From the IMG/VR virus record IMGVR_UViG_3300006903_000012: a stretch of 64,000 bases of DNA; one strand, 5' to 3'. The DNA comes from a virus. Below the pieces are notes generated by a model. It did not search any database and had not been told where the DNA came from. It worked only from the letters and a program-made list of their open reading frames with translations. The position numbers and the translations under genes were made by a program. Below are positions 1,084-43,316 of this stretch, in pieces (within the stretch, counting starts at the first letter, position 1; every line of letters begins with the position of its first letter).

Positions 1084-1338
1084 TCTTCAATTCTCCTTTT
1101 ATTAGATACAAAACTCGTTATTTAGAATAGTAAAGTTTCTTAAGTACATTTCGTTGCCAAATGAGTGTCTTGTCATTACGCGCAAAGAGTTCAATTGTAA
1201 AATAAGCAAACTCAACTTTATAATCAATCGTAACTAATCGTAACACCTTTACCGTTACAATCATAGTATGCTATTCCCGACCGAGTAAGTTCGGTATTCA
1301 TTGTGTCTTCTCCTTTTGCTAGGTATAAAGTTGTAGAA

Positions 1339-1761
1339 TCAAGCGACATCTGATTGGATAACTGTTATTGTGAGCAGTTCATATTCTCGCTCCCATTTAT
1401 GGAGCAGTACTGAAGGGGAAATAACTTTGAAGGAGCGCCGTGACATACCCGGCGCATGAAACACGGGGCGTTTGATCGGCCATTTCAGACCGGGCATAAG
1501 ATAGCAACCAATCTGTTGAAGCCCAAGTCGCTTGGCTTCAGCCAGTTCAGCAGCCATCCGACGTTCCATATCACGGCGAACAGTTGAACTATAACCTTTG
1601 CTTTGAACAATTTTCTTGCCTTGCTTGATGAGCTTTGGGCGAAGTTCGATAACTGCCGGAATGAGTTTCTTTCGTTTTTGTGTGTAACCGTTTGGCTCAT
1701 ATCCAGCTAAAATTCTATCAGATTGCCCGCCGGGAAATTGAAGCAGCCCATTGCCAGCCAT
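1339..1761 (-). CDS. Hypothetical basic protein (140 aa)
   Basis: Minus ORF abutting the stop of 1763..2152, with a GGAG upstream. Confidence 0.55.
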   Translation of the reverse strand: MAGNGLLQFPGGQSDRILAGYEPNGYTQKRKKLIPAVIELRPKLIKQGKKIVQSKGYSSTVRRDMERRMAAELAEAKRLGLQQIGCYLMPGLKWPIKRPVFHAPGMSRRSFKVISPSVLLHKWEREYELLTITVIQSDVA

Positions 1762-1762
1762 T

Positions 1763-2152
1763 TTATTTATTCTCCTCTAACATGCCACGACCAGAATCGG
1801 GGAATACCAATTCAACCCAATACTTAGAATAAGTTAAGCTGTCAAAACCCGCCGGCAATAACTTACGTGCAGCCTTTATTCTTCGATTAACTAGATTGCC
1901 AATTCCAAAATTTTCTGATTCTAGGTCAACTTTCTTCGCAAATTTAAAGACATAAGCATCTGACCATTTAGATGGATCCGGCCCTTCATCCCAAACAATT
2001 GGCACAGGTACTTTTAAAAGTGCTGATCGAATCATTTCGCATTGTTTGCAAACACATTCATTTGAAAGTGGAATACCTTGATGTAATTCTAGGATGTTTC
2101 GAAGCGTGCCCGCGAGAAAAATTTCTAATTCAGACATGTTATTCTCAATCAT
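1763..2152 (-). CDS. Hypothetical protein (129 aa)
   Basis: Minus ORF with an AAAGGAG RBS upstream of the ATG at 2152. Confidence 0.55.
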   Translation of the reverse strand: MIENNMSELEIFLAGTLRNILELHQGIPLSNECVCKQCEMIRSALLKVPVPIVWDEGPDPSKWSDAYVFKFAKKVDLESENFGIGNLVNRRIKAARKLLPAGFDSLTYSKYWVELVFPDSGRGMLEENK

Positions 2153-2182
2153 CTTCTCTTCTCCTTTTTTTATTTTATGAAA

Positions 2183-2665
2183 CTAGATTGAACAACCATA
2201 TCTAGACTGAGCTGCTCGAACAACCTCAACCAATCGTTCCTTTCGTGCTGGAACAAATCGTTTCTTTGTAATATCACATCTGCATTTTTTAGCAATCTTT
2301 TTCAAATTCTCGAGACTTGCCCACTCACAAGTGCATCGTGATGGAAATAATTTATGACAATCGATGCACTGTGCTTCCGTACTAATCTCAACAATTTTAA
2401 TATGTGTTCCCAAACGAACTAGCTGATAAGTTTCCCTAACGTCTTTATATTTCTTAAATGCTAATTCAATAGCTGCATTTACTGTTTCTTCTGACCAACC
2501 AACAAATCTACAATCACCTTCAACTCTACCATTCACTACTTTTCCTAATTCTTTCCAGCAAGTTTTTCCTGAATCGGCACAATCACCCAAGAAATCGCAT
2601 AAGTGGTCATTATGATGATGCCCAGTAATAAAATATTTCTCAGGAGTAACATCATAGATTTTCAT
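2183..2665 (-). CDS. Cys/His-rich hypothetical protein (160 aa), possible Zn-binding
   Basis: Minus ORF with an AAAGGAG RBS. It has many Cys pairs (CDFLGDC, CIDC, CTC, CRC) and an HHHNDH run. Confidence 0.55.
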   Translation of the reverse strand: MKIYDVTPEKYFITGHHHNDHLCDFLGDCADSGKTCWKELGKVVNGRVEGDCRFVGWSEETVNAAIELAFKKYKDVRETYQLVRLGTHIKIVEISTEAQCIDCHKLFPSRCTCEWASLENLKKIAKKCRCDITKKRFVPARKERLVEVVRAAQSRYGCSI

Positions 2666-2694
2666 TGCTTACTCTCCTTTTATGAGATAACTGA

Positions 2695-2895
2695 TTAACC
2701 TAATCGAACCGGTTGACCACCCTGCCACACTTGCAATCCCCGCTCTTGTGCAAACTGCACCGCTAAATCTTGCTCAAGACCATTTGTCGTCCACGAACGA
2801 ATGATGGGCAATTGAATGATCTCCTTGCCCTGTTGCACAAATGACAAGATTTTATTTTTGACTTCAGCAGGGATTTCAATTCCATAAGTATTCAT
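2695..2895 (-). CDS. Hypothetical small protein (66 aa)
   Basis: Minus ORF with an AAAGGAAGG RBS. Confidence 0.5.
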   Translation of the reverse strand: MNTYGIEIPAEVKNKILSFVQQGKEIIQLPIIRSWTTNGLEQDLAVQFAQERGLQVWQGGQPVRLG

Positions 2896-2930
2896 TTTGA
2901 GCCTTCCTTTTTGTAGGCTATAAAATTATC

Positions 2931-3203
2931 TCAAATCTTTGACTTACTCTTCTGATATTCTTTTGAACTGCTAATGTCTGGTGGCTTAATCATTCCCCAA
3001 GATCGAACAACTTGCGAATGATCTGTGTGGTTATAAATCTTCTCTATTTGCCCTTTCTTAGTAAAGTAAGCACACTGCAAGAAAACAGTTCCAGGATTTC
3101 TTTGCGGTTGTTCTAAAAGAAGAACAACTTCATTTGGTGCATCGATAAACCACAATTCAATCCATTCACCGGCTTTCAACTTCAAAACGTCTGTCTTGTT
3201 CAT
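2931..3203 (-). CDS. Hypothetical small protein (90 aa)
   Basis: Minus ORF with an AAAGGAGAG RBS. Confidence 0.5.
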   Translation of the reverse strand: MNKTDVLKLKAGEWIELWFIDAPNEVVLLLEQPQRNPGTVFLQCAYFTKKGQIEKIYNHTDHSQVVRSWGMIKPPDISSSKEYQKSKSKI

Positions 3204-3256
3204 TTATGTTCTCTCCTTTTTCTGAACGTATTTCTGAACGTAAAAAACTTATTGAG

Positions 3257-3526
3257 TTATTTCTTCTTCTTTGTTTTCACAACTTCGATAGTATAAACAA
3301 CTTCATAGCCGGATTTCAACTTCATTGTCACAAGTCGACCACACACCGAAGGGCCAACATATTGCTCAACCTCCCGGCGTGACACTTCATCTTGTGGTGT
3401 ATATCTCTGAAGATCAATAACAGCACAAACAGCAGCATCTAAAATCTTTTCATTTTGTTTGCTCATGCCCTGACTTTCCTTTTTTTTTGTAGACAAAATA
3501 AATCTGGCCCTCTGGTTATCCCACAA
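3257..3526 (-). CDS. Hypothetical small protein; the real start is probably the internal ATG at 3466 (MSKQNEK...)
   Basis: Minus ORF. An AAGGA-like RBS lies ahead of the ATG at 3466, whereas the first Met at 3526 has none. Confidence 0.5.
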   Translation of the reverse strand: MWDNQRARFILSTKKKESQGMSKQNEKILDAAVCAVIDLQRYTPQDEVSRREVEQYVGPSVCGRLVTMKLKSGYEVVYTIEVVKTKKKK

Positions 3527-3540
3527 CCAATGTTATGAGA

Positions 3541-3571
3541 CAACAAAAGGGCCGATTGTTTAGATCGGCCC
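3541..3571 (-). terminator. Intrinsic terminator for minus-strand transcription
   Basis: Minus strand reads GGGCCGAU-cuaaaca-AUCGGCCC (8-bp GC-rich stem, 3571-3549) followed directly by UUUUGUUG (3548-3541). Confidence 0.75.
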
Positions 3572-3597
3572 ATCATATTCTTATATTCTGTTGTCTA

Positions 3598-4133
3598 TTG
3601 CCAAGTCACAGTGTATTGTGTACGATTATTTGTTTTCCGCCTGACACTAACCAAGCTGTGCTCCACAACCGGCTAATGTACCTTGTGTCCAATATGTCCG
3701 CACTCATATTGTAAGCCCATCAGTAATGTTATACTCGAGTTTCAGTTTCGGCCTCAGTTCGTCTTTAACACTCTGTTTGGGTCCTGATAAGCAGAAAACT
3801 TATGCGCTCATCGCGCGGCATTCTTCATGCCTTGCCCGCGTCTTTACCATCTGGCTTAACTCTATATTAGTTTTGCCACTGGCCTGTCAGAGTCTGCAAC
3901 TTTTCACGCTCTCCGGGTCTGGCTGTCTCTCACTGCCACTCTCGCCATTGTTCTCTGTAATGGCGATCACCTTTTGGGCTGTTCATCCCATTCTCGACCC
4001 ATCCTCGTCACGCTACTGATTTGCCGCTTGAACTATTGTTCAAGCCTGACATTCACCGCTGCGTCCAAACCGGCTGTCTCAAACGCTCCGACTAACCGTC
4101 CGCTGCGTCTTCACTGGGCACTGTGACTTGCAA
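3598..4133 (-). ncRNA. Large (about 536 nt) ORF-less structured RNA of unassigned family (element A)
   Basis: There is no minus ORF. The minus strand is G/A-rich (plus strand C/T-rich). A 15-bp closing helix pairs 4133-4119 (UUGCAAGUCACAGUG) with 3613-3598 (one bulge). There are many local hairpins: 4045-4026 (8 bp), 3965-3942 (7 bp), 3831-3817, 3816-3804 and 3803-3787. Internal direct repeats are GACGCAGCGG x2 and AGCCGGUU(U/G)UGGA x2. A terminator lies immediately 3'. Confidence 0.7.
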
Positions 4134-4231
4134 TATGAGCTTTATAAACTAAATCCCCAAATCCATCAGAAGCAGGATAAGGGGAAAACAGTTATAGGCT
4201 TTTTGGAAATGTGCAAACAACACCCAAATTA

Positions 4232-4317
4232 TATATGAAGGAGCAGAAAATCACAAGGGGGCAGTTTGGTAAGATTATGTCAATTTGCCCCTTTGAATAT
4301 CCGAGTTCCTTCATATA
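4232..4317 (-). promoter_or_regulatory. Nested inverted repeat between gene 4327..4776 and element A
   Basis: The outer arms are an 11-bp repeat, TATATGAAGGA (4232-4242) and TCCTTCATATA (4307-4317). The inner arms are AAGGGGGCA (4255-4263) and TGCCCCTT (4286-4293). Confidence 0.5.
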
Positions 4318-4326
4318 AATAACCCA

Positions 4327-4776
4327 TCATTCAACGCCAGGGAATTTCTTAGCTAAAATCTCTGACAGGTCAAACAAAAATTGAGCAAAGGGTAATGACA
4401 CGCGATCCACCCGAAAATCAGGACTACACAGCCGCTCCCAGATCAAACTTGCCTGGTCATCCAATAAAACAACATCGAGCGACTCATCAGTTAGATCACC
4501 AACAAGCATTGCTAGCTTCATCCAAGGAGCGAGAGCTGTGAGAGTTGTCAGCTTCTGTTGCCCAGTTTCAGTCACTGGAACAAAATCAATAATCTTTTTT
4601 AGCCATTGCCGGTCGTGTACTTTTTCAACAAATCCCGAAATAGGACTGAAGAAATTATATAAAGCTTCTTTAGTTTGGTTCAGAGTCGGCAAAGAATAAA
4701 ACTGCCGAACTGTAACTAAATCAGCCATGATAATACCATCTGATGGTCTCGACTTCAAATTTATCTTAACTGACAT
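4327..4776 (-). CDS. Hypothetical protein (149 aa)
   Basis: Minus ORF and last gene of the tail/fibre block. No motif recognised. Confidence 0.55.
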   Translation of the reverse strand: MSVKINLKSRPSDGIIMADLVTVRQFYSLPTLNQTKEALYNFFSPISGFVEKVHDRQWLKKIIDFVPVTETGQQKLTTLTALAPWMKLAMLVGDLTDESLDVVLLDDQASLIWERLCSPDFRVDRVSLPFAQFLFDLSEILAKKFPGVE

Positions 4777-4795
4777 TCTGTCTCCTGTAGAACTC

Positions 4796-5206
4796 CTAAG
4801 GTGTAAATAAATGAACTTCTCGCATGACGCACCACCAATTAATTACTGTTGCTAATTGACCAGTTAATTCTAGATATAAAACTGCACGACCATCAGAATC
4901 AGTACCGGCTTTCGCAGTTGCTAGCCAAGTTGTTGCTAGAGTATCTTTTTGTGCAGGAACAATATTCACAATTGATCCGACTAGAACAGGCAAGATCCCA
5001 TTACTCCAAGTTCCGATCATGTCATACCACCAAGCTCGAACAGCTCCATCTGCTCGAACAGCCATTACATTATACTTAACTCTCATCATTGTTCCAGATG
5101 GAATAACAATACTTAAAGAATTACTAATTACTGTTGGCGTTGCATTGGTCGTTTGGATAACTTTTTCTTTATTAAATTTAACTTCGGTCCGCATTCTAAC
5201 TCCCAA
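4796..5206 (-). CDS. Hypothetical beta-rich protein downstream of the fibre gene (possible fibre accessory or tip protein)
   Basis: Minus ORF overlapping the fibre stop by 11 nt. The call rests on position only. Confidence 0.5.
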   Translation of the reverse strand: MGVRMRTEVKFNKEKVIQTTNATPTVISNSLSIVIPSGTMMRVKYNVMAVRADGAVRAWWYDMIGTWSNGILPVLVGSIVNIVPAQKDTLATTWLATAKAGTDSDGRAVLYLELTGQLATVINWWCVMREVHLFTP

Positions 5207-7361
5207 CCGGTTGAATACTTAATTTAGCAAGGTGCCACGTTACGTTATTGTTCGTGGCACCGGTTACTCTGATTCTAGCCGTCGCCGCTGTAACATCAAT
5301 CGTTGCATCCCAGCCTGCTTGATCCTCGCCAGAATAGTCTACCAAAACAGCACCGATCAGCGTTGCGGTACCGGCAACATTTTTGACAGTAGCAATAATC
5401 TCATAACCAGCTCCGTCTTCGGCTGTGCCAGCTGAACCGCCTGTCCGACGAGCAACCACTTCAGCATGAATTTTAACGGATGTCGAAGCTGGAACAGTAT
5501 AAGTATGTAGATTCGTTTGTGTATTATTAGTAGTTGTTATCCGATTCTGATAGATGCGATCTGATGGATCATCATTGGTAGCTACACTATCGATTCGACA
5601 GACCTCATTACCTAAAGTTGTCTCAGTAACATGAAGACGCGCACTTGCAGTAACTTGATTAATTCCCACTGACGAATCTAAATAATGATTATGACCTGAT
5701 CCAGCATAGATTCCATAATTTCCTGTTGGAAAAGTATTTCCCAAGATAAGCTCACAGTTATTCGTTCCAGAAGCCTGTGGTTGAACCTGTAGACCTACTA
5801 AATTCGTTATGCTTCCACCGCCGGTATTCGTCCCAGCAAACACATAACCACCCCGCGCAGTCACAACAACACCACTGCCGGAGTTATTTACCTGCATATT
5901 AAATCCGTGCATCGTAGTAATCGTACCAGCGCCAGTTGCGGTAATGACAAAAACACCGGCACGAAGACCACCAGCAGTAGATGTTGCTGTTGCTCCTAAA
6001 CTAACACTCATTGCCACATTTGCATTAATACCATTATACGAATTTGCATTATCAGCGGTGATGGTCTGTGTGGAAGCAACGCGAATACCTTGCGCACCAG
6101 CGAGTCCACCAAAGTCGGTCAAATTTTCTTGAACGTTCAGAACAATAGTATTAACAATACTTCCATCAGCACCGAAGACCCCATGACCGCTAACATCTAA
6201 AGTCCCAGTAATGGAAGTATCACCGCCTGATGGCACAATTATTAAATCGCCACTCGCACTAGTAAACGATACAAAATCTGTCGCACTAGTTCCGAGTCTC
6301 AATTGCTCACTAGATGAAACAACATGCAGCTTAGCAGAAGCTAAGGTAACCCCAATACCAACTTGGTCAGTAATTACAGCCAGCTGAACTAACGAGCCGT
6401 GATCTTCCCAACCACTCGGTAAGGATCCAGTACTTGTTCGACTATATAACTCAAATAAAGCATCTTCAACATTCTGCGATGTCAACACACCGCTGGGGTC
6501 AGCAACGGAAACATTCCGTGCTGGCAATGATCCAGTATGTGAGCCATAAATCGGATCTAACGCATGTGGCAACGGCGCTGTTCCACCGGACAACAACATA
6601 ATCCGAATATCGAACAGATCTGCCCAACCAATTGTTGCTGTAGTGCTGGTTAAGTAGACCGCCACTAATGGGATCCCAACTGTTGTACTAATTGATGGGA
6701 TTTGACTAACTACATCAGTTGGTGGCAATGTTTCTGAAAAAGTGCTTCCGGCCGAAACTTTGATTGTTCCCGTCCCACCATCTAAATACACAGTTACAAA
6801 TCTACCAAATGAGTCAGCTGGTTTGTAACTGGTTAAATCTGGAGAACTGCCGCCGCTAAAATATTGATTCTGACCATTCCAGAAATAAAAATCCGGCTCA
6901 ACATAGACAGTCATGTCTGCTGTCGATTGTGGGTGTGCTAAAAGCGGCTGTGCCATTTGCCGTTTATAGATAAAAGCAATATCACGACCAGCGTCAGACG
7001 GCAGTGCAAACGAATGTTGACGACCGTGTTTCGGTTGTTGTGGTTCCGGCCACTCTTGATACTTTCCGGTATCTTTTCCGATTACCCGATAAAATCGGGA
7101 ATTATATGGGTCCTTCTTTAAAAGAATGGCCTGTCCCCACTGCAACCCCGCTGTCTCATTAAAAGCTTGAACCGGCTCCGATGTTTGACCACGAATTCTA
7201 ACATGCACTAATCCGGGACGATCCGCTACACTTATTTCTTTAACGCCAAGCTCATTATAGCGACCCAACATTCCAGAAATAACTTCTTCTTTATTTTCTT
7301 TATTGTCTAAAATTCGTCTGATAGTTGAGATCAGACGATCTTGACCAGCACGATTCGGCAT
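5196..7361 (-). CDS. Tail fibre/spike-like protein (721 aa) with a Gly/Thr/Ser/Ala-rich repetitive beta-type central region
   Basis: Position at the distal end of the tail module, and long G/T/S/A/V/N-rich stretches typical of fibre shafts. Confidence 0.55.
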   Translation of the reverse strand: MPNRAGQDRLISTIRRILDNKENKEEVISGMLGRYNELGVKEISVADRPGLVHVRIRGQTSEPVQAFNETAGLQWGQAILLKKDPYNSRFYRVIGKDTGKYQEWPEPQQPKHGRQHSFALPSDAGRDIAFIYKRQMAQPLLAHPQSTADMTVYVEPDFYFWNGQNQYFSGGSSPDLTSYKPADSFGRFVTVYLDGGTGTIKVSAGSTFSETLPPTDVVSQIPSISTTVGIPLVAVYLTSTTATIGWADLFDIRIMLLSGGTAPLPHALDPIYGSHTGSLPARNVSVADPSGVLTSQNVEDALFELYSRTSTGSLPSGWEDHGSLVQLAVITDQVGIGVTLASAKLHVVSSSEQLRLGTSATDFVSFTSASGDLIIVPSGGDTSITGTLDVSGHGVFGADGSIVNTIVLNVQENLTDFGGLAGAQGIRVASTQTITADNANSYNGINANVAMSVSLGATATSTAGGLRAGVFVITATGAGTITTMHGFNMQVNNSGSGVVVTARGGYVFAGTNTGGGSITNLVGLQVQPQASGTNNCELILGNTFPTGNYGIYAGSGHNHYLDSSVGINQVTASARLHVTETTLGNEVCRIDSVATNDDPSDRIYQNRITTTNNTQTNLHTYTVPASTSVKIHAEVVARRTGGSAGTAEDGAGYEIIATVKNVAGTATLIGAVLVDYSGEDQAGWDATIDVTAATARIRVTGATNNNVTWHLAKLSIQPVGS

Positions 7362-7366
7362 TTACA

Positions 7367-9463
7367 TTATCCTAACCAAACAGCTCCAATCACTATTGGA
7401 TCTGCAAATGCCGACACAACCGTCGCCCAATTCCCAATTTTATTTACTAACGTTACGCCACTATTAGTACTATAATAGATAGCTGATGAACTCAAAAACA
7501 ATAAACGGGCTGAACTAAATGCCCATAAAACCAAACTTCGAATACCAAGTAAACCAGTTGATTGAGTCGTCCAACTAACGCCCCCGTTTGTCGACTTCAT
7601 CAGACTCCAAGTATCCGAACCTAGATGCTTAAATGTATAAATCGTATTCTTATCTGTAATAAATGATCTCAGTCTTAAGTGCCGATTTTTTGCACTCTCT
7701 GTCAATGCCAAACTAACAACACCATTGATTGTTGTATATCGATACAATCCACCATCGTTTCCCCAAAAATAAATTGAACTATCATCTGAATTACCATCTA
7801 CAAAACATTCAATATCGTTTGCCCCATTCGTCGTTATTAAATTTGAAAAAGAGCTACTACCATTTGTAGATTTCACAACTGTCGATTTATTAGCAGTATA
7901 AACTATCTGGTTATTATGCTGACCAACACTCAAACATTTCTTTTTATCAACGTCTCCTGTCGAGCCTTGTACACCGACAAGTCTTCCAGCAAATCCAGTA
8001 GCACCAAGTTGAAACGTCCCACCAACAGCTAATCGGCCGCCTTCCGAAATTCCAATGGTTTGGGGATAATCAGCTGTATTGCCACCGAATAATGTTCGCC
8101 AGATTAACGCTCCACTTGTTGGGTTAAGTTTCAAAACCTGCCAACGACGAGTATTCGGCGAACCTCCCGTTTGTTCGACAACTGCTGCATATACTCCGGA
8201 GCTGTCGGCAGATAGACCTTGTATACAAAGTGTACAGAACGTAGATGCACTAGATGGAGTTGGACTGACAGAATAATCCGCCCAACTACCACTATAATCA
8301 AATCCTGTTGACGCTGTAAGTTTCTTTATAAGACAACCATTATTAGACTGTTTCGAACCAAGTACAAAAACAGCATCTCCTAATAACGCAACACCCACAG
8401 CCCAATAACTAGAAGATGTAGTCGGTTGTACATTTCTTGACCAGACTAACCCACCAGATAAAGCAGATCGACATTCAATGCGCCACATCAAAACAGAATT
8501 CACTGAATCATATTCTGATCCGACAACATAAACAAACGATTCATCACAAACCATGTGATAAGGTTTAAAGTCGGTAGACACAGATACAAGATTAGTAACT
8601 GCCCAACCAGACGAACCATTCGATTTATCATAGCGGGCTATTCGCCAACCTCTTTTAGCTGGTGACGAATTTCTGATAAATCCTGCCGCAAATACACTTG
8701 TTGAATTACAACAAACACTTCCTGGACCAATAGAAACATCAGCTGGGGTTGTTGAGTTACTCCAAACAACTACGCCATCTATGAGTCTGCGGCATTGGAC
8801 AACCCAATTTAAAGAATCTTTCCCAAAAAGATATAAATAAGTATCATCAGTTGCAAGATGTGTTCCGTCTTCCAAGTTGTTGTTTGCTGGTGATAGATTA
8901 GCATCTACAGCAAACCAAACAGATTCTCCAGAAGATGGATCTCGTTTATAAATGGCTAGAATACCTGTCGCAGTTCCATCACGCCCACAAGTATAAATAG
9001 CATCGTCCGTAATTGAGAGAGAATCAACTGTGTCAGTATGAGCTGGATCTAAGCTATTGTCAATCGATATACCGAAAATCGAACCACCAGAACTATATCC
9101 GACATCCGTTAGACCTGTCCAAGTCGGTCCTGACCAAGTTGAACCATTATCATCAGATCGAAGAACATATTGTCGACTCTCTATATCAGTCGAAACCACT
9201 TTAGCATACATCAAAATGTAATAGACGTATTTCTTTGCGGCTGTGTTCCGAACCCGGACAAATTCCGGATTCAAACTAGAATCAAAAAAATCAGTTGTTT
9301 GAGCTATTCTAGTCCAAGTTGGAATTGAATCATTTAGATTCAACGTTTTATAAATTGAATTACTAGTTATAACCCACGCCCGATATTTCGGATAGAATGG
9401 ATCCAGAATCATATCCACAATCGTACCTGAAATAGACCCAGTTATTTTTCGCCAAGTTGCCAT
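7367..9463 (-). CDS. Tail-associated beta-propeller protein with BNR/Asp-box motifs (698 aa)
   Basis: Asp-box-like SxDxGxTW strings (SDDNGSTW, STNGGVSW, STNGSSSF) and repeated W/Y-rich blades, within the tail module. Confidence 0.55.
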   Translation of the reverse strand: MATWRKITGSISGTIVDMILDPFYPKYRAWVITSNSIYKTLNLNDSIPTWTRIAQTTDFFDSSLNPEFVRVRNTAAKKYVYYILMYAKVVSTDIESRQYVLRSDDNGSTWSGPTWTGLTDVGYSSGGSIFGISIDNSLDPAHTDTVDSLSITDDAIYTCGRDGTATGILAIYKRDPSSGESVWFAVDANLSPANNNLEDGTHLATDDTYLYLFGKDSLNWVVQCRRLIDGVVVWSNSTTPADVSIGPGSVCCNSTSVFAAGFIRNSSPAKRGWRIARYDKSNGSSGWAVTNLVSVSTDFKPYHMVCDESFVYVVGSEYDSVNSVLMWRIECRSALSGGLVWSRNVQPTTSSSYWAVGVALLGDAVFVLGSKQSNNGCLIKKLTASTGFDYSGSWADYSVSPTPSSASTFCTLCIQGLSADSSGVYAAVVEQTGGSPNTRRWQVLKLNPTSGALIWRTLFGGNTADYPQTIGISEGGRLAVGGTFQLGATGFAGRLVGVQGSTGDVDKKKCLSVGQHNNQIVYTANKSTVVKSTNGSSSFSNLITTNGANDIECFVDGNSDDSSIYFWGNDGGLYRYTTINGVVSLALTESAKNRHLRLRSFITDKNTIYTFKHLGSDTWSLMKSTNGGVSWTTQSTGLLGIRSLVLWAFSSARLLFLSSSAIYYSTNSGVTLVNKIGNWATVVSAFADPIVIGAVWLG

Positions 9464-11451
9464 TATGAAGTAAAATTCCTTGATCTTCCGATATTGTCAT
9501 CAACAGCCACATATACTAAATCGACTGTCGACAAAGTTGAGATTGGGGGCAACGGAGGAGTATCTGGAAGAGGTGCTTCCAAAGGATCATCTGGTGGAAC
9601 TGGTAAATATGGCCCAGTAACACCGGCAGGACCATCCGTTTCCTCATCGCAACCAATGTCAACTAATAAGACTTGTGCTGCTCGATCATATTGAAAATTA
9701 ACCGATCTAGGAATTACATTTTTCAACAACCAGACTAATCCGAGATAATTATCATTTACTGTCAATGTTATCTTGACACGTTCCTGTGGAGCAATATCAA
9801 AAATTCGATAATCACCCGACAAAGGGATTCGAATATCGTAGTAAATTCGATTCTGATCGGCCAAGATGTTTCCCGCTAACTGATTACTCGCATCTTGACT
9901 TTGCTGTACCAAACCATTAATAATTCTTGTCGATCCTTGATATTTCGGCGCTGAACCGGGAGCCGACGAAATAACTGCAAAAAACTGACCAGAAGCAGGT
10001 CCTTCATATAAGATTCCGCCCACTTCAACATAAGCAACCACATCTTCTCGCCGTTGTTGAATATTTAGTCGATCCCGCCAGTCGGCTCGAGTCAAAGTTA
10101 GAGAACTACCAGGATTTCTATCTTCAATAGGAATGAGATCAATTTTCTTTTCAGTCCAACCCTGGCCTTGTCGATCAAAAACTAAATGAGCTAATAATGT
10201 TGATTGTAAAAACCCATCGACCGCCGAATACATCGGTTCACGTGAAAAATCAGCAAACTGAACCGGATCAGTATTTCCATTCTTATTTATATCAGCTATT
10301 AGATACACAGTGGTATGCCAGCGAAAAAAGTGCATAACGGCTTTATCAACTGTCATATTTTTCAACTGATACCAAGAAGTTGGCGTTGATACAGATTGAA
10401 GCGAGACCGAGAAAACTTCAGAGATTTCTAATCGATCTGCTAATCCCGCCGTTTCAAAACTAACCAGTGAGGTTGTTGGATCAATCGCAACTGATCCACT
10501 TTTCACATAACCAACATAAACAATTTTCTCTAAGTTGGGATAATTCCCGCCAATGCTTTGTTGTGTAGTCGAATACCAATCATCGGCAAAGATAACTACT
10601 AAAGCACCATCAACTACATTGTCGAAATCAGCCGATTGGCGCATCCAAATCTTAGCTTCCCAACCACCACGATTATAATCACCCATTAAATTCTCAATTC
10701 CCCAATTAAGAATTGGCGGGTTATTACCACCAGGAGCATCACGAATGATTACATGTCGATAAGCTGTAAAAGACTTTCCAGAATTATTGGTGACAGTCAG
10801 ACTGACTAAATAATCGCCCGCAGTTGTCCAATTGATATTTCCCGGTGTGGCTGCTGTTGAAGATGTAACTGTCGCACCTTCAAACGACCATAGATAACTA
10901 GTTATCGTTCCACTGGCATTCAAATCGTAGCTGTGTGATCCATCAAAATAACTAGATGCTACTCCACTTCGAATAATTACTGCTCGATTAGGACCCATCA
11001 TCGGAATCGGATCAAAAATTTCATTCTGATTAGTATAAGTTACATCATAATCTTTATAGAATGTTGGAATGTTGGCACTACTTAAAGTAATTCTAGGATA
11101 AATTCCCCACAACTCAAAAAAATTCAAAACTGAAAAATAAACACCACTTGACCAATCAATGTCTGTATTTTCAGCCACTGTAATCGTCGTTCCGTTAGCA
11201 GATCGTGTCCGTAGTCGCCCTAAATCACGACCGCCCGGTGTTGTTCCGACAATCATGGTCATTCCATTTTTTATTTTTGTATAATCGCCAGTCGCATTTT
11301 GATAATGAATGACTCGATAGCCTTTAGCTGCCGTCGAGTCATTCACTTGCGCTGAAAAGATAGTTGTTGGTCGATAAATAGCTAAATGCAGACTTGTTCG
11401 ATGCGGGCGCGAACGTAATAAACTTAATTCTGTTGAAGAAATTACCGTCAC
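9463..11451 (-). CDS. Tail tip/baseplate protein with a PKD-like Ig domain (662 aa)
   Basis: The segment SYLWSFEGATVTSSTAATPGNINWTTAGDYLVSLTVTNNSGKSFTAYRHVII matches the PKD pattern (WxFGDG...GxYxVxLTVTD). It lies downstream of the tape measure and has an ATGA overlap with the next gene. Confidence 0.55.
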   Translation of the reverse strand: MTVISSTELSLLRSRPHRTSLHLAIYRPTTIFSAQVNDSTAAKGYRVIHYQNATGDYTKIKNGMTMIVGTTPGGRDLGRLRTRSANGTTITVAENTDIDWSSGVYFSVLNFFELWGIYPRITLSSANIPTFYKDYDVTYTNQNEIFDPIPMMGPNRAVIIRSGVASSYFDGSHSYDLNASGTITSYLWSFEGATVTSSTAATPGNINWTTAGDYLVSLTVTNNSGKSFTAYRHVIIRDAPGGNNPPILNWGIENLMGDYNRGGWEAKIWMRQSADFDNVVDGALVVIFADDWYSTTQQSIGGNYPNLEKIVYVGYVKSGSVAIDPTTSLVSFETAGLADRLEISEVFSVSLQSVSTPTSWYQLKNMTVDKAVMHFFRWHTTVYLIADINKNGNTDPVQFADFSREPMYSAVDGFLQSTLLAHLVFDRQGQGWTEKKIDLIPIEDRNPGSSLTLTRADWRDRLNIQQRREDVVAYVEVGGILYEGPASGQFFAVISSAPGSAPKYQGSTRIINGLVQQSQDASNQLAGNILADQNRIYYDIRIPLSGDYRIFDIAPQERVKITLTVNDNYLGLVWLLKNVIPRSVNFQYDRAAQVLLVDIGCDEETDGPAGVTGPYLPVPPDDPLEAPLPDTPPLPPISTLSTVDLVYVAVDDNIGRSRNFTS

Positions 11452-19044: not shown

Positions 19045-19914
19045 TTACCAATATTTCCATTCATCATATTCTATAATATCCTTACATCGCATTCGGAATA
19101 TTTGCTCATTGAACCGAGCGGTTTCTGAATTATTTGATCCACCAGAGAAATGATACAACTTCACCAACGGTTGATAGATAACTTTGCCACCTAATTTTCT
19201 AACTTGAAGACAATACTGTACATCCTCAAAATTGCCTTTAGTATAAATTGGATCCAAACCGCCAATTGTTTGATAGATATTTCTGCGTGTCATCAAACAC
19301 GCACCAGTCACTGCATTCATCTCCAATCGTTGGATCACTCTAGGATGCTCAGCTCGCCAACCTTGATAAATATGATATGGCTGACCTAAAAGATTGAAGA
19401 CCACCCCAGCATGTTGAATTTTACCTGCTGGCCGATTGGGTACAACTGAATCTTCAGGATATAACAATCGAGCACCGACGACCCCAACTTCCAAATCGCT
19501 AAACTCATCGGTCATTCGCCGCAGCCAACCGTCTTCGCATATCTCAATATCTGAGTTTAACAAAAGAATAATTGGTGAATGCCCACGACTGACACCGTTG
19601 TTATTTGAAACAGCAAACCCTGAATTTTTGTGATTACGGATAATTTTGATTCTTGAATCTTTTTTATAATCAGCATACAACTGATCTAATTCATCACCAT
19701 CAGGTCCCAAGTCATCGACTAGAAACAATCGCCAATCTATGCCCGCATCAAATTTTCTCAATGAATCAACCATAATTGATAAAAATCTTGGCTGCCCATA
19801 AACTGCTGTAACTATGTCAACTGATGTGATCGGTGACTGTTTCAGACTCAGAAAGTCCGTCTTCGTTACTTGCTTCCGAAATTGTCTTCGTGACATTATT
19901 GTCCACCACCTCAT
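19045..19914 (-). CDS. Family 2 (GT-A) glycosyltransferase; start uncertain (overlaps the upstream gene by ~98 nt)
   Basis: Motifs VDIVTAVYGQPRFL, LVDDLGPDGD, NSGFAVSNNNGV and LLLNSDIEI. Confidence 0.75.
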   Translation of the reverse strand: MRWWTIMSRRQFRKQVTKTDFLSLKQSPITSVDIVTAVYGQPRFLSIMVDSLRKFDAGIDWRLFLVDDLGPDGDELDQLYADYKKDSRIKIIRNHKNSGFAVSNNNGVSRGHSPIILLLNSDIEICEDGWLRRMTDEFSDLEVGVVGARLLYPEDSVVPNRPAGKIQHAGVVFNLLGQPYHIYQGWRAEHPRVIQRLEMNAVTGACLMTRRNIYQTIGGLDPIYTKGNFEDVQYCLQVRKLGGKVIYQPLVKLYHFSGGSNNSETARFNEQIFRMRCKDIIEYDEWKYW

Positions 19915-21019
19915 ATAATTTCATCGATTTTAGAATAACATCTGCTGCGACCGACCAACTATCAATCTTTTGTTTAGGAATGCGTCCTTGAACTAAAACC
20001 TGATGTAATTTTTCGACTGCATCAAGAATATTCAAACTATAATAATTGATACCACCCAATGGGTAAGAAAATATTTTGTCAGATGTAACTAACCCACCGC
20101 TGCCATTAAGTGCTTCATAAATATTTGGATGATCAGTGGCAACGATTGGGCAACCTTGTGAGCGAGCTTCATAAAGCGGTAGACCAATTCCTTCAGCATA
20201 AGACGGCAAAAGAAAACATTCTGCATTCTGATAAAGATACTTCAACTGTTCTTGAGATACAGATTTGTTATGCTTCAAATCCAAACGATCGGCTGGAAAT
20301 CCATATCTCGAACATAAATCATCAAAATCACCCCAACCATCGGGACTATCAATATTAGTTACAAGAACATAATCCCAGTTCAGATCATTAGAATACATTT
20401 CTCGGTACTTAGCTAAAATTTCAATAGCTGCCGATAAATTTTTTCTAATTTGATTATCGGCCACTGTCAAAATAAATGGCCGATCATTGTTACGAACTAT
20501 CGGTTCTGAAACATCGTCAAGCCAAAATTCATCTAAGCCCACTGGTAACCTAATCGCATCAATCAATCGTTTCTTCAACTCTGAAACACCAAAATCTGTA
20601 AATGTAAACCGAAGTGACGATGATAGCATCAATGTCTGTGCCCATTTTCGATAGAATGGATCACTCTCAACTGGGAAGATTGATGCTACTTTTTTGCCTT
20701 TATAAAAAACGAGATCATGCCGTAAAACACTATCAATAATTCCAGTTTGTTTCTGAATATCCATTAAAAACAATATCCAGTCAGGATTTATCTCTTTGGA
20801 TAAAACTCTCAACTGCTCCGGAAGCCAGGGAAGATGAGTTGGAATCAATCTAAACGGATAATCATGCTCACGACCGTCATAATTAATTCCTAAAACTGTA
20901 ACGTCACAACCCATCTCGCTAAATTGCTTAGCAAACGCCGCTGCAATAGATTGATACCCCGACGGAACTAAAAAATCACACAACATCAGCAACTTTAATT
21001 GGCTATTCGTCTCTGCCAT
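19817..21019 (-). CDS. GT-B (GT4-like) glycosyltransferase (400 aa)
   Basis: C-terminal EGIGLPLYEARSQGCPIVATD matches the E-x7-E region of GT4 enzymes. Confidence 0.7.
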   Translation of the reverse strand: MAETNSQLKLLMLCDFLVPSGYQSIAAAFAKQFSEMGCDVTVLGINYDGREHDYPFRLIPTHLPWLPEQLRVLSKEINPDWILFLMDIQKQTGIIDSVLRHDLVFYKGKKVASIFPVESDPFYRKWAQTLMLSSSLRFTFTDFGVSELKKRLIDAIRLPVGLDEFWLDDVSEPIVRNNDRPFILTVADNQIRKNLSAAIEILAKYREMYSNDLNWDYVLVTNIDSPDGWGDFDDLCSRYGFPADRLDLKHNKSVSQEQLKYLYQNAECFLLPSYAEGIGLPLYEARSQGCPIVATDHPNIYEALNGSGGLVTSDKIFSYPLGGINYYSLNILDAVEKLHQVLVQGRIPKQKIDSWSVAADVILKSMKLYEVVDNNVTKTISEASNEDGLSESETVTDHIS

Positions 21020-22065
21020 TCACTTGTCCATTCTGTTACTAGATTATCGTAACTAAACTGCATCGCATACGTCTGACAATTTAAGCGCATACGTTTCTTA
21101 GTTTCTTCGTTGAGCAAAAGCGCGCGAACTGTCTGCTCAACAAACTTATCTTGATAACGCTGATTGCTAGACCCATAAGTCGGAACAACATAACCAGTTA
21201 CCTTATTCAAGACTTTCTCCAACAAAGCAGCGCGACCAGAAACAACTGGAATTGTTCCCCACAACATACTTTCTAGAATCGCCATTCCGCACGTTTCATA
21301 AAAATCTGATGGATACAAATATAAATCCGCTTGCCGTTGAGCATCTCTAGCTATCTCTGAATTAGCATGCTTAAAATTCACAACATCCAAATCTCGAAGC
21401 GATTCAACTTTTGTATAAATACCTCTCACCATCTCTTCATTCTCTTCAGCTGTATGTCCCCAACCCATAAACGAACTATACAAATGAAGTGATGCAAAAG
21501 GTACTTGAGACTTTATTTTCGGCCAAACAGTTAACAGGTTATCTAGCCCACGCTCAGGTGTTGCCATGAAAATACAGCGACCAGGCACCTTGGTAACTAA
21601 CGGTAGATCGATAACCTCGACACCATTGGATGACACTAACCAGTGGTCATCGTGAATTTCTTCTTCTTTAGCAATTTTTTCCTTCTGCCAATGACTAACA
21701 GAAATAACTAAATCAATTCTTCCAGCTCGGATATCTTCACCCAAACCAACACTTTCAGTATCAGCCAAAAATAAAACCTTCAATTTTGTATTCAGATCCT
21801 GCTGAAATGGTTCTCGGTGCCGTAACGAGTAGACAACATCAAAATATTCTTTAGGATCAAACTGAGCGATGTTACTCCAAAGAAGTCCGCCACCATAATC
21901 TATTCGAACTGTTTCTAGTCGATTGAAGACGTGAACTTGATGACCTTGCTTGACTAAATATCTAACTGTATTCAGAAATCCATTTTCAGAACCGCCCAAG
22001 CCTTTTTCTTTATGAGTATGAATATCAAATGCTGGAATATTCTGGTATATCATTGCAATTTTCAT
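20995..22065 (-). CDS. GT-B (GT4-like) glycosyltransferase (356 aa)
   Basis: Motif YETCGMAILESMLWGTIPVVS, with an N-terminal GGSENG. Confidence 0.7.
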   Translation of the reverse strand: MKIAMIYQNIPAFDIHTHKEKGLGGSENGFLNTVRYLVKQGHQVHVFNRLETVRIDYGGGLLWSNIAQFDPKEYFDVVYSLRHREPFQQDLNTKLKVLFLADTESVGLGEDIRAGRIDLVISVSHWQKEKIAKEEEIHDDHWLVSSNGVEVIDLPLVTKVPGRCIFMATPERGLDNLLTVWPKIKSQVPFASLHLYSSFMGWGHTAEENEEMVRGIYTKVESLRDLDVVNFKHANSEIARDAQRQADLYLYPSDFYETCGMAILESMLWGTIPVVSGRAALLEKVLNKVTGYVVPTYGSSNQRYQDKFVEQTVRALLLNEETKKRMRLNCQTYAMQFSYDNLVTEWTSEWQRRIAN

Positions 22066-22770
22066 TTAGTCATCAACCCTTTCCGGCATCCCATATTTTC
22101 GACATAGTTTTTTACGACTATCGTGCATAATATCTAAAATCGAAACTCCATCATGAGTCATCCATGATAACGTTCCATGCCGAAGATGAGTTACCATTCC
22201 ATTATCTTCAATTCCGGTTGGTAAAAGTCGATATCCAGCCGCTAGAAGCCGTTGGCAGAAATCAACGTCTTCACAAGTAAATACAAATTGCTCATCGAAT
22301 GGTTTTCCATCCTGAACAATTTTCAATGCCACTTCTTTTCTAAATGCTAAGAAGGCTCCCTCTAAAAATGAAAATCCATTCCAACTCATCAGTCGGGAAC
22401 CAGCCATTCCAACATCAGGAATTCTAGCTGCGTTCGCAAGAGATGACATCCAACCAACTCGATTAAAAATCACATCGTTATTAAGAAGCAAAATAACATC
22501 ACTATTACTAGAAAGCTCGATGATATTATTCCAACAAAAAGCAATTGACTCATTCGTTGGATATTGATATGGATGCCGATAAACTTCAGATGTTTCTGCT
22601 AATGGTATAAGATAATCAAACAAGATGTTTGTCTTGCTACCATTATCAATGAGAATGATCTCATATTCTTCATCGGCTGTTGCCTTCAAAGTCTCCAAAC
22701 AGACTTTTGTCATTTCTAAAATCTCTGGTCGGCCAGGAACATCGTGCACAATTATTCCAACTGTAATCAT
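22066..22770 (-). CDS. Family 2 glycosyltransferase (234 aa), paralog of 29825..30550 and 31492..32196
   Basis: Motifs GIIVHD..., ILIDNGS, LLLNNDVIFNRVGW and FTCEDVDFCQR. Confidence 0.75.
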   Translation of the reverse strand: MITVGIIVHDVPGRPEILEMTKVCLETLKATADEEYEIILIDNGSKTNILFDYLIPLAETSEVYRHPYQYPTNESIAFCWNNIIELSSNSDVILLLNNDVIFNRVGWMSSLANAARIPDVGMAGSRLMSWNGFSFLEGAFLAFRKEVALKIVQDGKPFDEQFVFTCEDVDFCQRLLAAGYRLLPTGIEDNGMVTHLRHGTLSWMTHDGVSILDIMHDSRKKLCRKYGMPERVDD

Positions 22771-23672
22771 TGGATAACCCCGCGATACTTCAGAGTATCT
22801 AAGGCATGTTCCATTCTAATTTTGTAAGTTGCAGACTCTAAAATATATTGACGAGCAAGATCACCTGACTTCTCATCAGCAGAAGTCAGAGCTTCATCAA
22901 CGATTCGATATAATTGATCTAACGATGTGTAATCCCAAATAAAGGGACTATTAGGACTAAATAGTCGATTGATTGATGGGACAAAGTTCGTCACTAAAGG
23001 AATGCCACATGACAACGTTTCAAAAACTCGCATATTCACATCATAGGCCACCGGCTCGCCATAGAAAGAACTAATATTGAAACCGACTTTTGATCCACGC
23101 AAAACTGTCGCCCCTGCATTCATTAGAGCTACTCCATGCCCCAAGAAGCCCAGTCGATAGCGTTTAGCTAATTGATCCAAAACTTGCTGCCGAGTTGCAT
23201 CCCAAACATTGCCAACAAAACCAATATCATAAATTTTTTCTTGTTTGGGTTCATTATTCCACACATCCGGATCCGCTGCCAAGGGTAGCCAACTGACTCG
23301 ATTGATTTTATTAGCAAAACAATCTTCAACATCTTCTAATTGTGATTGAAACACCCAGCCGCCCGCAGCATTGATAATTTTACAAGTCGACAAATCAGTC
23401 GGATTCTTAAGAGTTTTTCCGCGTCGATAATCAATCATCCAAAAGCAAACTTTCTTCATATTTGGATGGGTTGCAATCTCAATATCAGTTAGATTCAGCG
23501 GCCCGCCGCTATCGACACAAAAATACAAATCGTAACTATCAGCTTTCAGTTCTCGATAAAAATCCCATTGCGATAAAATATCAACCTGATGTCCAAGCTG
23601 CTGAAACGCTCGCTTACTATACTCACCAGTAGTTCCAATTTCATAAGCGGCAATTGGAATTGCAATTTTCAT
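22767..23672 (-). CDS. CgeB-like glycosyltransferase (301 aa), paralog of 28503..29444
   Basis: It shares an architecture with 28503..29444 (DLYFCVDSG/DLFWCQDSG, SWLPLAADP/SWLPIAGDP, FETLSCGIPLVTN/FEAPLCGIPVVTP). Confidence 0.6.
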   Translation of the reverse strand: MKIAIPIAAYEIGTTGEYSKRAFQQLGHQVDILSQWDFYRELKADSYDLYFCVDSGGPLNLTDIEIATHPNMKKVCFWMIDYRRGKTLKNPTDLSTCKIINAAGGWVFQSQLEDVEDCFANKINRVSWLPLAADPDVWNNEPKQEKIYDIGFVGNVWDATRQQVLDQLAKRYRLGFLGHGVALMNAGATVLRGSKVGFNISSFYGEPVAYDVNMRVFETLSCGIPLVTNFVPSINRLFSPNSPFIWDYTSLDQLYRIVDEALTSADEKSGDLARQYILESATYKIRMEHALDTLKYRGVIQ

Positions 23673-25356: not shown

Positions 25357-25373
25357 TTTACTTACTCCTTAAT

Positions 25374-29818: not shown

Positions 29819-29824
29819 GTAACT

Positions 29825-31479: not shown

Positions 31480-31491
31480 ATACTGCTCCTT

Positions 31492-32196: not shown

Positions 32197-32205
32197 TTTT
32201 TTCTC

Positions 32206-33949: not shown

Positions 33950-33972
33950 TTCCGCTTTCTCCTTATAACTAA

Positions 33973-43296: not shown

Positions 43297-43316
43297 GTTA
43301 CAAAAATTCCCTAAAC

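Follow-up and report, generated by a model that had tools for sequence, protein, structure and literature searches.

A candidate new class of large structured non-coding RNA in one clade of uncultivated phages

Directly past the tail genes of an uncultivated phage, on the minus strand of the 64-kb stretch of DNA that was analysed here (the window), lie about 680 bases that are free of open reading frames. This element is non-coding, structured and conserved in place, and its helices covary. It belongs to no known RNA family and is therefore a candidate new class, its standing as a large structured non-coding RNA (ncRNA) outside the known families being supported by the evidence that follows. 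The reading favoured here, with moderate confidence, is that the element is a gene in its own right for a large, highly folded ncRNA of about 680 nt. The family, absent from Rfam, would be limited to a single clade of uncultivated phages whose genomes measure roughly 100-110 kb, and the RNA is inferred to act in trans by its shape.

The element is found where the late gene block, here at its tail-fibre/lysis end, gives way to the next block, in which small genes precede an AAA_5 ATPase. For the 149-aa and 721-aa proteins next to it, which are near-orphans, one distant relative was found, in the phage L003, which has genes and not the RNA at the equivalent place. The minus strand of 3541-4326 is 61% purine (A 32%, G 29%, C 19%, U 20%), in keeping with the G/A-richness remarked on in an initial annotation of the sequence, and the G+C content of the element is 48% vs 40% for the genome. 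The same annotation saw no credible ORF here and this holds, each minus-strand frame of 3541-4326 having 13-15 stops that include TAA, TAG and TGA, so that reassignment of a stop codon is excluded. That the region is a decayed or recoded protein gene, or codes for a small peptide, is hardly tenable with all three stop codons in all frames. There is a hydrophobic ORF of 40 aa at 4192-4314 along with antisense ORFs of 59-97 aa, and gene callers do report antisense ORFs in the related phages L105 and L153, but ORFs of this kind are to be expected where the antisense strand is pyrimidine-rich, and similarity between the phages at the protein level does not go beyond 18 residues that overlie a conserved RNA motif. 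The plus-strand ORF at 3726-4019 sits on that pyrimidine-rich strand and such ORFs are not conserved in the homologues, which agrees with its earlier dismissal as antisense noise. A conserved small ORF would have refuted the annotation's case for an RNA, and no conserved ORF was found across the five phages compared.

A sigma-70-like promoter is predicted at 4228-4256 on the minus strand, with a -35 box TTGTGA (4256-4251), a 17-nt spacer and a -10 box TATAAT (4233-4228), matching the consensus at 10 of 12 positions. A TAnAAT -10 box followed by T[A/U]GG is kept in all five phages (the window, L149, L150, L105 and L153); a sigma-70-like -35 box is present in the window, L150 and L153 and not in L105, with the -35 position of L149 falling outside the segment examined. 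At the other end there is an intrinsic terminator (3541-3571, minus strand), an 8-bp G+C-rich stem GGGCCGAU/AUCGGCCC at 3571-3549 with a U tract, correctly called strong at the outset, which is the only strong one of the area and has an equivalent closing the element in all four homologues. Counted from just past the -10 box up to where the U tract stops, the predicted transcript is about 680 nt (3541-4221, minus strand), and on this prediction a start near 4221 is more probable than the 536-nt RNA starting at 4133 that had been proposed. Both ends, at about 4221 and about 3541, are inferred from promoter and terminator with no expression data.

The element might also be no more than a structured 3' untranslated region that closes the late (tail-fibre) operon, made by read-through only and serving as a block to 3'-to-5' exonuclease or as a processing site without a function in trans, an explanation that we consider unlikely though not negligible. 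It does stand behind the last late gene on the same strand with no intrinsic terminator between the two, the area's only strong terminator is at its end, and RNase III might cut at a long hairpin of about 100 nt that separates gene and RNA. This hairpin (4225-4326, minus strand; MFE -31.8 kcal/mol, z -4.8; inverted repeat 4232-4242/4307-4317) starts straight after the stop codon of the 149-aa gene and overlaps the promoter-like site. The retention of the -10 box and T[A/U]GG just upstream in five phages speaks for a promoter of the element's own, and in L105 and L153 the RNA comes after a lysozyme gene and not after the tail-fibre gene, which suggests that RNA and signals travel together as one unit. 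Furthermore, the protection of a 3' end needs far less than 500-900 nt in which single-stranded motifs are conserved and long-range helices covary. The earlier suggestion of a protected end of the late transcript thus gives way to a gene of its own as the more likely arrangement given the conserved -10 box, although read-through is not excluded. Antisense pairing or the cis-regulation of a neighbouring gene seems less likely, and a role as a leader is unlikely because the strong terminator divides the element from the downstream genes.

Folding of the minus strand of 3541-4140 gives an MFE of -202.2 kcal/mol, with z = -6.65 and -6.9 relative to dinucleotide shuffles, the background being a mean of -1.0 (sd 1.3, minimum -3.0) in 23 evenly spaced 600-nt windows of the same strand. 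Two coding windows chosen as extremes have z of -5.5 and -5.9, and a plain regression of MFE against GC does not place the element with its strongest outliers, the pairing potential of purine-rich sequence being low from the start. Hairpins with a pair probability of at least 0.9 number more than six, where at least six had been anticipated. The evidence fits the minus strand as the RNA strand, since the G.U pairs in the helices Pa, Pb and P2 (described below) and the difference in MFE agree (minus -202 vs plus -174 kcal/mol). A perfect 12-nt inverted repeat (3602-3613/4119-4130) lengthens in the fold into the outer closing helix, P1, of 16 bp with one bulge (4135-4120/3612-3596, pair probability 0.91-0.96), much as the long one-bulge helix of the initial annotation; its 5' strand is UAUUGCAAGUCACAGU (4120-4135, minus strand) and its 3' strand ACUGUGACUUGGCAAUA, with one bulged G (3596-3612, minus strand). 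P1-like long-range helices are found at the equivalent place in L105 (10 bp), L149 (7 bp) and L153 (6 bp), with sequences that cannot be aligned.

Terminal inverted repeats of 12-17 nt (4135-4119/3612-3596) could mark an element that works as DNA, be it a replication origin, a packaging site or a MITE-like insertion, and the reverse strand also folds well (z -6.0) whilst the absence of the element from more distant relatives resembles that of an insertion. Such a role at the level of DNA is very improbable. The conserved helices keep G.U pairs and the fold of the transcribed strand is the more stable one by 28 kcal/mol, promoter and terminator follow the gene orientation, and it is the internal helices that are conserved and not the inverted repeat itself. 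The element is G+C-richer than its genome, unlike typical origins, no target-site duplication could be read from the sequence around it, and no other copy was found in the window by nhmmer or in INPHARED phages, PLSDB plasmids and E. coli genomes by BLASTN.

Synteny, followed outward from a conserved 662-aa tail protein (9463-11451), led to the corresponding regions of four related metagenomic phages (L149, L150, L105/L106 and L153). These relatives share tail genes and the AAA_5 ATPase with this phage, and their regions, of 510-860 nt, are purine-rich, ORF-free and structured (z of -5.1 in L149, -3.7 in L150, -4.8 in L105 and -6.7 in L153) and lie at the same genomic boundary. The motif CAGTGAAGACG is present in only four of 150 loci examined, L105, L106, L150 and L002, the last being identical to window 1327-7776, with the variants CAGAGAAGACG in L153 and CGGAGAAGACG in L149. 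The nearest relatives without the RNA are L003, L140, L141 and L143, so the RNA is dispensable for this type of phage, and it is also missing from more distant relatives.

Common to all five phages are the motif CAG[U/A]GAAGAC, the helices Pa and Pb, the junction GGYRMAYGURRG, the long-range helix P2 and the hairpin Pd (coordinates that follow are on the minus strand). In the window, as in all homologues, the order of the core (4116-4046) is the same, with the motif (CAGUGAAGAC, 4107-4116) followed at once by Pa, which encloses GA and Pb, and then by the junction. Pa is a 7-bp helix of CGCAGCG (4101-4107) with CGCAGCG (4057-4063), having a central A.A mismatch in this phage. The invariant GA (4100-4099) comes just before the Pb hairpin (4071-4098), the outer pairs of which are CGGU (4098-4095) and GCCG (4074-4071). 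The junction strand GUGAAUGUCAG (4046-4056) gives, with the preceding G, the family consensus GGYRMAYGURRG, and is followed by the Pc hairpin GCUUGAAC-AAUA-GUUCAAGC (4026-4045, probability 1.00); a hairpin after the junction can be read by eye in L105 and L153 too. P2, formed by UGCCC (4116-4120) and GGGCA (3833-3837, preceded by AAAGACG), is a long-range helix that closes domain 1, with a probability of 0.91 for GCCC/GGGC. Within 1-2 nt of P2 in the hand alignment of the five phages comes Pd, which has an A/G-rich AAGA-type loop and here is GGCAU-GAAGA-AUGCC (3817-3831, probability 1.00).

Covariation supports these helices. Pa has 94% of cells paired and four pairs with double compensatory changes, and it is also predicted by RNAalifold on an automatic MAFFT alignment; Pb is paired in 20 of 20 cells, with all four pairs changed on both sides. 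Taken together the two have 96.4% of cells paired and double changes in 8 of 11 pairs, a score reached by none of 500 shuffles, and registers that were slid are only 28-44% paired. P2 is paired in 24 of 25 cells in the five phages, with compensatory changes in all five of its pairs, and Pd in 20 of 20 cells, with three of four pairs compensatory. For the four helices this amounts to 97 of 100 cells paired, with double compensatory changes in 15 of the 20 pairs, which answers the annotation's call for homologues and covariation with four related phages. The set has only five distinct members, and the alignment was built by hand with the helices in mind, so the pair counts are biased upward. The words AAGAC and AGACG are the most enriched 5-mers in the five RNAs (16 observed vs 5.8 expected), which carries little weight, as each RNA owes one copy to the homologous motif and the test took in 1024 words.

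Outside this core the RNA is variable, and domain 2 and P1 cannot be aligned across members. The fold has a further hairpin, Pe (GCGC-GAUGA-GCGC, 3804-3816, minus strand), at the position of which L149 has GGAGC-GAUGA-GCUCC. Domain 2 (3632-3799, minus strand) is an 11-bp helix (3799-3789/3642-3632) around three hairpins, with probabilities of 0.81-0.99. Within it lies a second, diverged copy of the segment that runs from the 3' strand of Pb through the tail and the 3' strand of Pa to the junction (AGCCGGUUGUGGAGCACAGCUUGGUUAGUGUCAGGC, 3639-3674, minus strand), which here folds as a hairpin. By eye, the hairpin at 3679-3644 has an AGC...GUU pairing faintly like that of group II domain V. Duplicated segments had been pointed out from the start, and GACGCAGCGG does occur twice (4109-4100 and 4065-4056), but the two copies are the strands of the one conserved helix Pa and not only a duplication. 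The repeat of about 35 nt (4075-4044 vs 3674-3639) scores 43, against 20.6 +/- 3.4 and a maximum of 32 in shuffles. The internal pseudo-symmetry that was proposed is partly the two strands of Pa.

No family of Rfam 15 matches the element, neither in a scan of the whole window at gathering thresholds nor at E<=10 on 3400-4350, and there is no match at E<=1 on the homologues L149, L150 and L153. Families without a match in these scans, the check that had been advised, include ROOL, GOLLD, OLE, HEARO, raiA, group I and II introns, RNase P, tmRNA and 6S. The only RNase P entry in the permissive scan is a 9.6-bit chance match outside the element. ARAGORN found no tRNA and no tmRNA in the 64 kb. The earlier view that it is neither a group I nor a group II intron is upheld by the scan of 3400-4350, in which models of group II D1-D4 or domain V/VI also have no match at E<=10. 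A diversity-generating retroelement template or a retron was ruled out, with no repeat of the region elsewhere in the window and no reverse transcriptase seen among the neighbours screened.

It remains conceivable, if improbable, that this intron-rich phage has here a mobile or catalytic RNA, such as an intron-like element that is degenerate or lacks an ORF, or another ribozyme. The window has four group I introns (RF00028) with homing endonucleases, all outside the element, the size is within the range of ORF-less group II introns, and the faint domain V-like pairing at 3679-3644 would be in line with it. The element matches no group I, group II or small-ribozyme model (E<=10, and E<=1 for the homologues), it is intergenic and interrupts no gene, it has a predicted promoter and a terminator of its own, and it has no second copy in the window; its position is conserved in relatives, which is unusual for mobile elements.

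Large phage RNAs can escape sequence search, the homologues here being missed by nhmmer and BLAST and recovered through synteny. A search of all loci examined with the single RNA by nhmmer found only itself and missed even the homologues recognised later. An exact 26-mer and the internal-repeat motif had no match in IMG/VR; the motif had 99 matches in JGI metagenomes, and among those listed 80 loci were all nhmmer-negative, with 42 matches being one variant family, antisense of a soil helix-turn-helix gene where translations were inspected. The family pattern CAGTGAAGACG...GGTSAATGTNAG had no matches in IMG/VR and two chance matches in GTDB genomes, and its GAGAAGACG variant one chance match, all at 17 bits or less with model R1. 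This model of the 5' core gives 54-70 bits on the window, L149, L150, L105/L106 and L153, which are its own training set, and no more than 17 bits on the loci of 45 other relatives. None of 38 IMG/VR relatives found through a 36-sequence alignment has the RNA, and a two-sequence protein alignment found no match in IMG/VR or GTDB genomes. A tblastn search of INPHARED with the portal fusion and a tail protein was also empty, leaving the lineage without an isolated relative in that collection. No conserved protein partner adjoining or co-occurring with the RNA was found.

For a separate RNA gene, the reading preferred here, transcription would probably be driven by a sigma-70-type promoter of the element's own, late-operon read-through being possible as well, and would stop at its own intrinsic terminator. 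In the folded RNA P2 would close the first domain, CAG[U/A]GAAGAC would run directly into Pa with its GA and Pb, the single strand GGYRMAYGURRG and a hairpin would follow, and Pd would come straight after P2, the core being surrounded by variable peripheral domains and the outer closing helix. That the RNA acts in trans through its three-dimensional shape, whether it binds a protein or another macromolecule or assembles with itself, is pure inference by analogy with other large ornate phage RNAs.

A bolder idea, which can only be tentative, is that these RNAs are the first known members of a class of large ornate phage RNA that is new and has no relation to ROOL or GOLLD. They would be transcribed by the host polymerase from a promoter of their own, and their architecture would suffice for their action, for example by assembling with one another into a particle or by trapping a host factor or a defence protein as a decoy. 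If true, it would be a new case of RNA-only machinery in the conflict between phage and host. To our knowledge very few classes of bacterial or phage RNA exceed 500 nt. ROOL and GOLLD have been found to build RNA-only cages, the purpose of which is open, and an unrelated further class would enlarge the sample for working out what such RNAs are for. The compact conserved core, clear gene structure and natural presence or absence in relatives make a defined experimental target.

The initial annotation likened the element to ROOL and GOLLD, which stands as a resemblance in kind, of size and phage origin, and not as membership, there being no Rfam match. ROOL is usually found near tRNA islands in phages or prophages and assembles as an RNA-only homo-oligomeric cage. 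It is an elaborately folded ncRNA of about 0.6 kb that phages and prophages encode and for which neither a protein partner nor a function is known (PMC12286853). The element shares with it size, heavy folding, phage origin and the lack of a known protein partner, but fails its Rfam model, has no tRNA neighbours and has other conserved motifs. GOLLD is phage-encoded with a conserved core and variable parts, some members being 800-900 nt, its expression is tied to lytic growth and its conserved part is the 3' region (PMC12286853). The element is likewise a large phage RNA with a conserved core and variable parts, and the upper sizes of GOLLD resemble that of L105, but here it is the 5' domain that is conserved and there is no Rfam match and no tRNA neighbourhood. 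OLE and raiA are chromosomal RNAs of bacteria, and HEARO is an RNA of IscB-type elements. The element is like these three in size class and degree of folding, and in being defined through covariation and not through a known function, and differs in having no Rfam match to them and no associated protein gene nearby. The pRNA of phi29, at about 120-174 nt, is restricted to phi29-like podoviruses, and the element resembles it in neither sequence nor structure and has no Rfam match to it. The likeness is that of a phage-encoded structured RNA, one which in phi29 is transcribed from its own promoter and works, through its shape, as a multimer within a protein machine.

On the minus strand, 3541-4326 is the interval between a gene for a 149-aa protein, whose stop codon is at 4327, and the next gene (3526 downward). 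That it is coding sequence is less likely; each minus-strand frame has 13-15 stops with all three stop kinds represented, and every ORF listed is either short or on the antisense strand, which is pyrimidine-rich. Purines make up 61% of the minus strand, and its G+C content is 48%, against ~40% for the genome. A 12-nt perfect inverted repeat (3602-3613 / 4119-4130) belongs to a 16-bp helix with one bulge (4135-4120 / 3612-3596, pair probability >0.9), and the fold inside this closing helix is well determined, with a 7-bp helix (4119-4112 / 3840-3834) predicted to enclose a domain of ~270 nt, followed by two neighbouring hairpins (3831-3817 and 3816-3804) and an 11-bp helix (3799-3789 / 3642-3632) around a ~150-nt domain with three hairpins. 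A terminator is found at 3571-3549. The initial annotation had described a purine-rich, strongly folded strand with no credible ORF, a closing helix and a terminator, all of which is confirmed. The repeats it listed are also present in the sequence, although the two copies of GACGCAGCGG, which it took for internal pseudo-symmetry, are the two strands of one helix, Pa.

The 600 nt of 3541-4140 fold at -202.2 kcal/mol, with z scores against shuffled sequence of -6.65 (100 shuffles) and -6.9 (separate own shuffles); the background of 23 evenly spaced windows on the same strand has a mean z of -1.0 (sd 1.3, minimum -3.0). There are caveats, in that two coding windows picked as extremes are almost as extreme as the RNA gene, these being 22201-22800 (z -5.5), within coding sequence, and 43201-43800 (z -5.9), which covers the 3' end of a 523-aa ORF and a non-coding stretch beside an intron, both on the minus strand. 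Furthermore, a plain regression of MFE on G+C does not pick out the region, because purine-rich sequence has low pairing potential, leaving own shuffles as the sole fair control. A separate hairpin of ~100 nt (z -4.8) is found in 4192-4326 (minus), directly after the 149-aa gene, where it overlaps a 40-aa hydrophobic ORF (4192-4314, MKELGYSKGQIDIILPNCPLVIFCSFIYNLGVVCTFPKSL) as well as a promoter-like site; possible readings are a processing site, an attenuator and a small membrane peptide.

Scanning the whole window with Rfam 15 at gathering thresholds detected only four group I introns elsewhere (RF00028, 52-59 bits; 36702-36940, 42305-42496, 42850-43031 and 53326-53505, minus), a permissive scan of 3400-4350 at E<=10 gave noise only, three homologous loci at E<=1 gave one irrelevant microRNA match only, and ARAGORN found no tRNA or tmRNA in the window. 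The RNA therefore belongs to no Rfam family, with membership of ROOL, GOLLD, OLE, HEARO, raiA, group I/II introns, RNase P, tmRNA and the other families excluded, and the ROOL- or GOLLD-type resemblance noted initially does not amount to membership in the window or the three homologous loci. An intron-like or ribozyme element is less likely. HNH/homing endonuclease ORFs (36813-37616, 38449-39303 and 53560-54432, minus) occur in the same regions as the introns, and 34.5-43.3 kb appears to be one or more genes interrupted by introns.

The window comes from a phage genome that has every gene on the minus strand and no resemblance, at DNA or protein level, to anything in INPHARED. A single 1689-aa ORF (48201-53270) fuses a portal domain (residues 15-325) to a Mu F-like head-morphogenesis domain (668-883), with a C-terminal domain of unknown function. 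The window also encodes a head-tail adaptor, as well as many glycosyltransferases and a nucleotide-sugar epimerase; glycosyltransferase, epimerase and related genes form an unusually long series within the structural gene block at 19045-34000, and such a run is also present in the relatives L105, L107, L109, L151 and L153. Logan, JGI and ENA assemblies have contigs of ~111.5-112 kb that encode the 149-aa protein adjoining the RNA, and one such contig (L002) is identical to the window across 6450 nt.

Direct DNA searches found no homologues of the RNA, and the two proteins nearest to it are almost orphans; the sole distant relative to which they led (L003) lacks the RNA and carries ordinary genes downstream of the tail genes. 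Of the 155 relatives of the 662-aa PKD-domain tail protein (9463-11451), contigs were fetched for the closest, at 45-56% identity. Four related phages have an equivalent region, which is an uncalled gap of 710 nt after the last tail gene in L149 (ENA ERZ28563591), a gap of 663 nt in L150 (Logan SRR21686420), and a gap of 0.8-1.1 kb after a lysozyme gene in both L105/L106 (JGI 3300033074, Logan SRR32380201) and L153 (Logan SRR13378642). The gaps match the window RNA in composition (A 29-34%, G 27-30%, C 18-21%, T 20-21%), and each has a TAnAAT box, then T[A/U]GG, and a strong terminator at its end, with z scores of -5.1 (L149), -3.7 (L150), -4.8 (L105) and -6.7 (L153). All four have small genes and an AAA_5 ATPase within the next 1-5 kb, and the sequence of a further locus, L148, ends ~110 nt past the same kind of promoter. 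The gene caller placed a spurious antisense ORF inside the gap of L105 (19449-19916, 155 aa) and L153 (18772-19182, 136 aa), on the minus strand of those loci. Their window counterpart, 3726-4019 (+), had already been dismissed as antisense noise, and as these ORFs are not conserved between phages they are most likely artefacts of a stop-poor, pyrimidine-rich strand.

Whilst nhmmer detected no similarity among these RNAs, they have co-linear words in common, and CAGTGAAGACG is confined to these loci among 150. Reading the sequences side by side gave a common 5' core. It begins with five nucleotides whose pairing partners lie far downstream (P2), then CAG[U/A]GAAGA, the 7-bp helix Pa, whose first base is the C of GAAGAC, an invariant GA, a hairpin of variable length (Pb), a tail of 7-10 nt with GA or AA at its end, and the Pa return strand. 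There follows a single strand, GGYRMAYGURRG (GGUGAAUGUCAG in the window, 4057-4046), and a hairpin observed in the window, L105 and L153. The register of Pa is not free, because its strands abut conserved blocks on both sides; its sequence is CGCAGCG/CGCAGCG in the window, with a central A.A, CGCCUAG/CUAGGCG in L153, CGUGCGG/CCGCGCG in L105, CGCUAAG/CUUAGCG in L150 and CGACUGG/CCAGUCA in L149. In the hand alignment 96.4% of cells (one base pair in one sequence) in Pa and Pb are paired, with changes on both sides in 8 of 11 pairs, a covariation score matched by none of 500 shuffles, and slid registers are only 28-44% paired. RNAalifold predicted Pa unaided on the untouched MAFFT alignment, with 4 of 7 pairs compensatory. 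The window MFE (ViennaRNA) already includes Pa and Pb, although the A.A mismatch keeps their probability low.

P2 spans ~225-345 nt and reads UGCCC/GGGCA in the window (4120-4116 / 3837-3833), CUGCC/GGCAG in L153, CUGGC/UCCAG in L105, CAGGC/GCCUG in L150 and GCUCG/CGGGC in L149; 24 of its 25 cells are paired, and each of the five pairs shows compensatory changes. The hairpin Pd starts 1-2 nt later and has a GC-rich stem of 4-5 bp (20/20 cells paired) with loops such as GAAGA, AAAGAAC, UAAGAAU and AGAGA. Together the four helices have 97 of 100 cells paired and double changes in 15 of 20 pairs. The counts are strong but, with five distinct sequences in a structure-guided hand alignment, remain below R-scape grade. 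A DNA-level element is less likely; the four G.U pairs in the helices are consistent with an RNA read from the minus strand, which is 28 kcal/mol more stable than its complement.

Immediately 5' of P2 a long-range helix encloses most of the molecule in each RNA, being 16 bp in the window, 10 bp in L105 (ACCGUAGUCC/GGACUACGGU), 7 bp in L149 and 6 bp in L153, with candidates in L150. These outer helices cannot be aligned and thus P1 is an architectural feature of unproven homology. The hairpin Pe (GAUGA loop) is common to the window and L149 only, and conservation of domain 2 (3632-3799) across phages could not be established. The closing helix of that domain (3799-3789 / 3642-3632, GUUUUCUGCUU / AGGCGGAAAAC) is similar in sequence to the outer helix of L153 (18572-18577 / 19104-19109, AGGCGGAUAAAC ... 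AUUUUCCGCC) with the strand order swapped, which is either coincidence or a domain rearrangement or permutation.

A covariance model of the core scored 54-70 bits on the five sequences, its own training set, and matched nothing further in the loci of 45 other relatives, which total 0.93 Mb. In relatives whose tail protein is <=40% identical, the position expected for the RNA is densely packed with genes, including in three that retain the AAA_5 ATPase at a comparable place downstream, and core pattern scans of IMG/VR and GTDB representative genomes gave no additional member, three chance matches being rejected as lacking the helices. The family is therefore so far limited to one subclade of uncultivated phages, with a G+C content of 40 to 51%. 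A distant relative of 65% G+C (L118:20109-20425) has a 317-nt divergent intergenic region that folds into a very long hairpin rich in G+C (z of -6.5 for the gap and -3.7 over 501 nt), unrelated to this RNA family.

The element is thus non-coding, strongly folded and conserved in position, its helices covary, and both a terminator of its own and a conserved -10 box accompany it. At -35 the window has TTGTGA, L150 has TTGACG and L153 has TTGATT; the L105 element is not sigma-70-like and the L149 position lay outside the fetched segment. It is inferred to be a discrete RNA gene that would be transcribed by a host-type polymerase. It could instead be the 3' UTR of the late operon, but this is less likely, as 500-900 nt of conserved architecture goes far beyond what a 3' end requires. 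Since the terminator also separates the RNA from the next genes, a discrete RNA is thought likely to act in trans through its shape, although this is inference and its target is unknown; no conserved neighbouring protein was found as a possible partner. The candidate new class of large ncRNA proposed in the initial annotation is supported, and strengthened by covarying homologues, with its transcript extent, transcript origin and the meaning of the repeats corrected. Large ornate phage RNAs are a known phenomenon, to which it adds a new family of unknown function. ROOL and GOLLD form RNA-only cages and are thought to act through shape (PMC12286853), and the likeness of the present RNA to them is that of another large phage RNA for which a shape-based action is proposed, here by inference.
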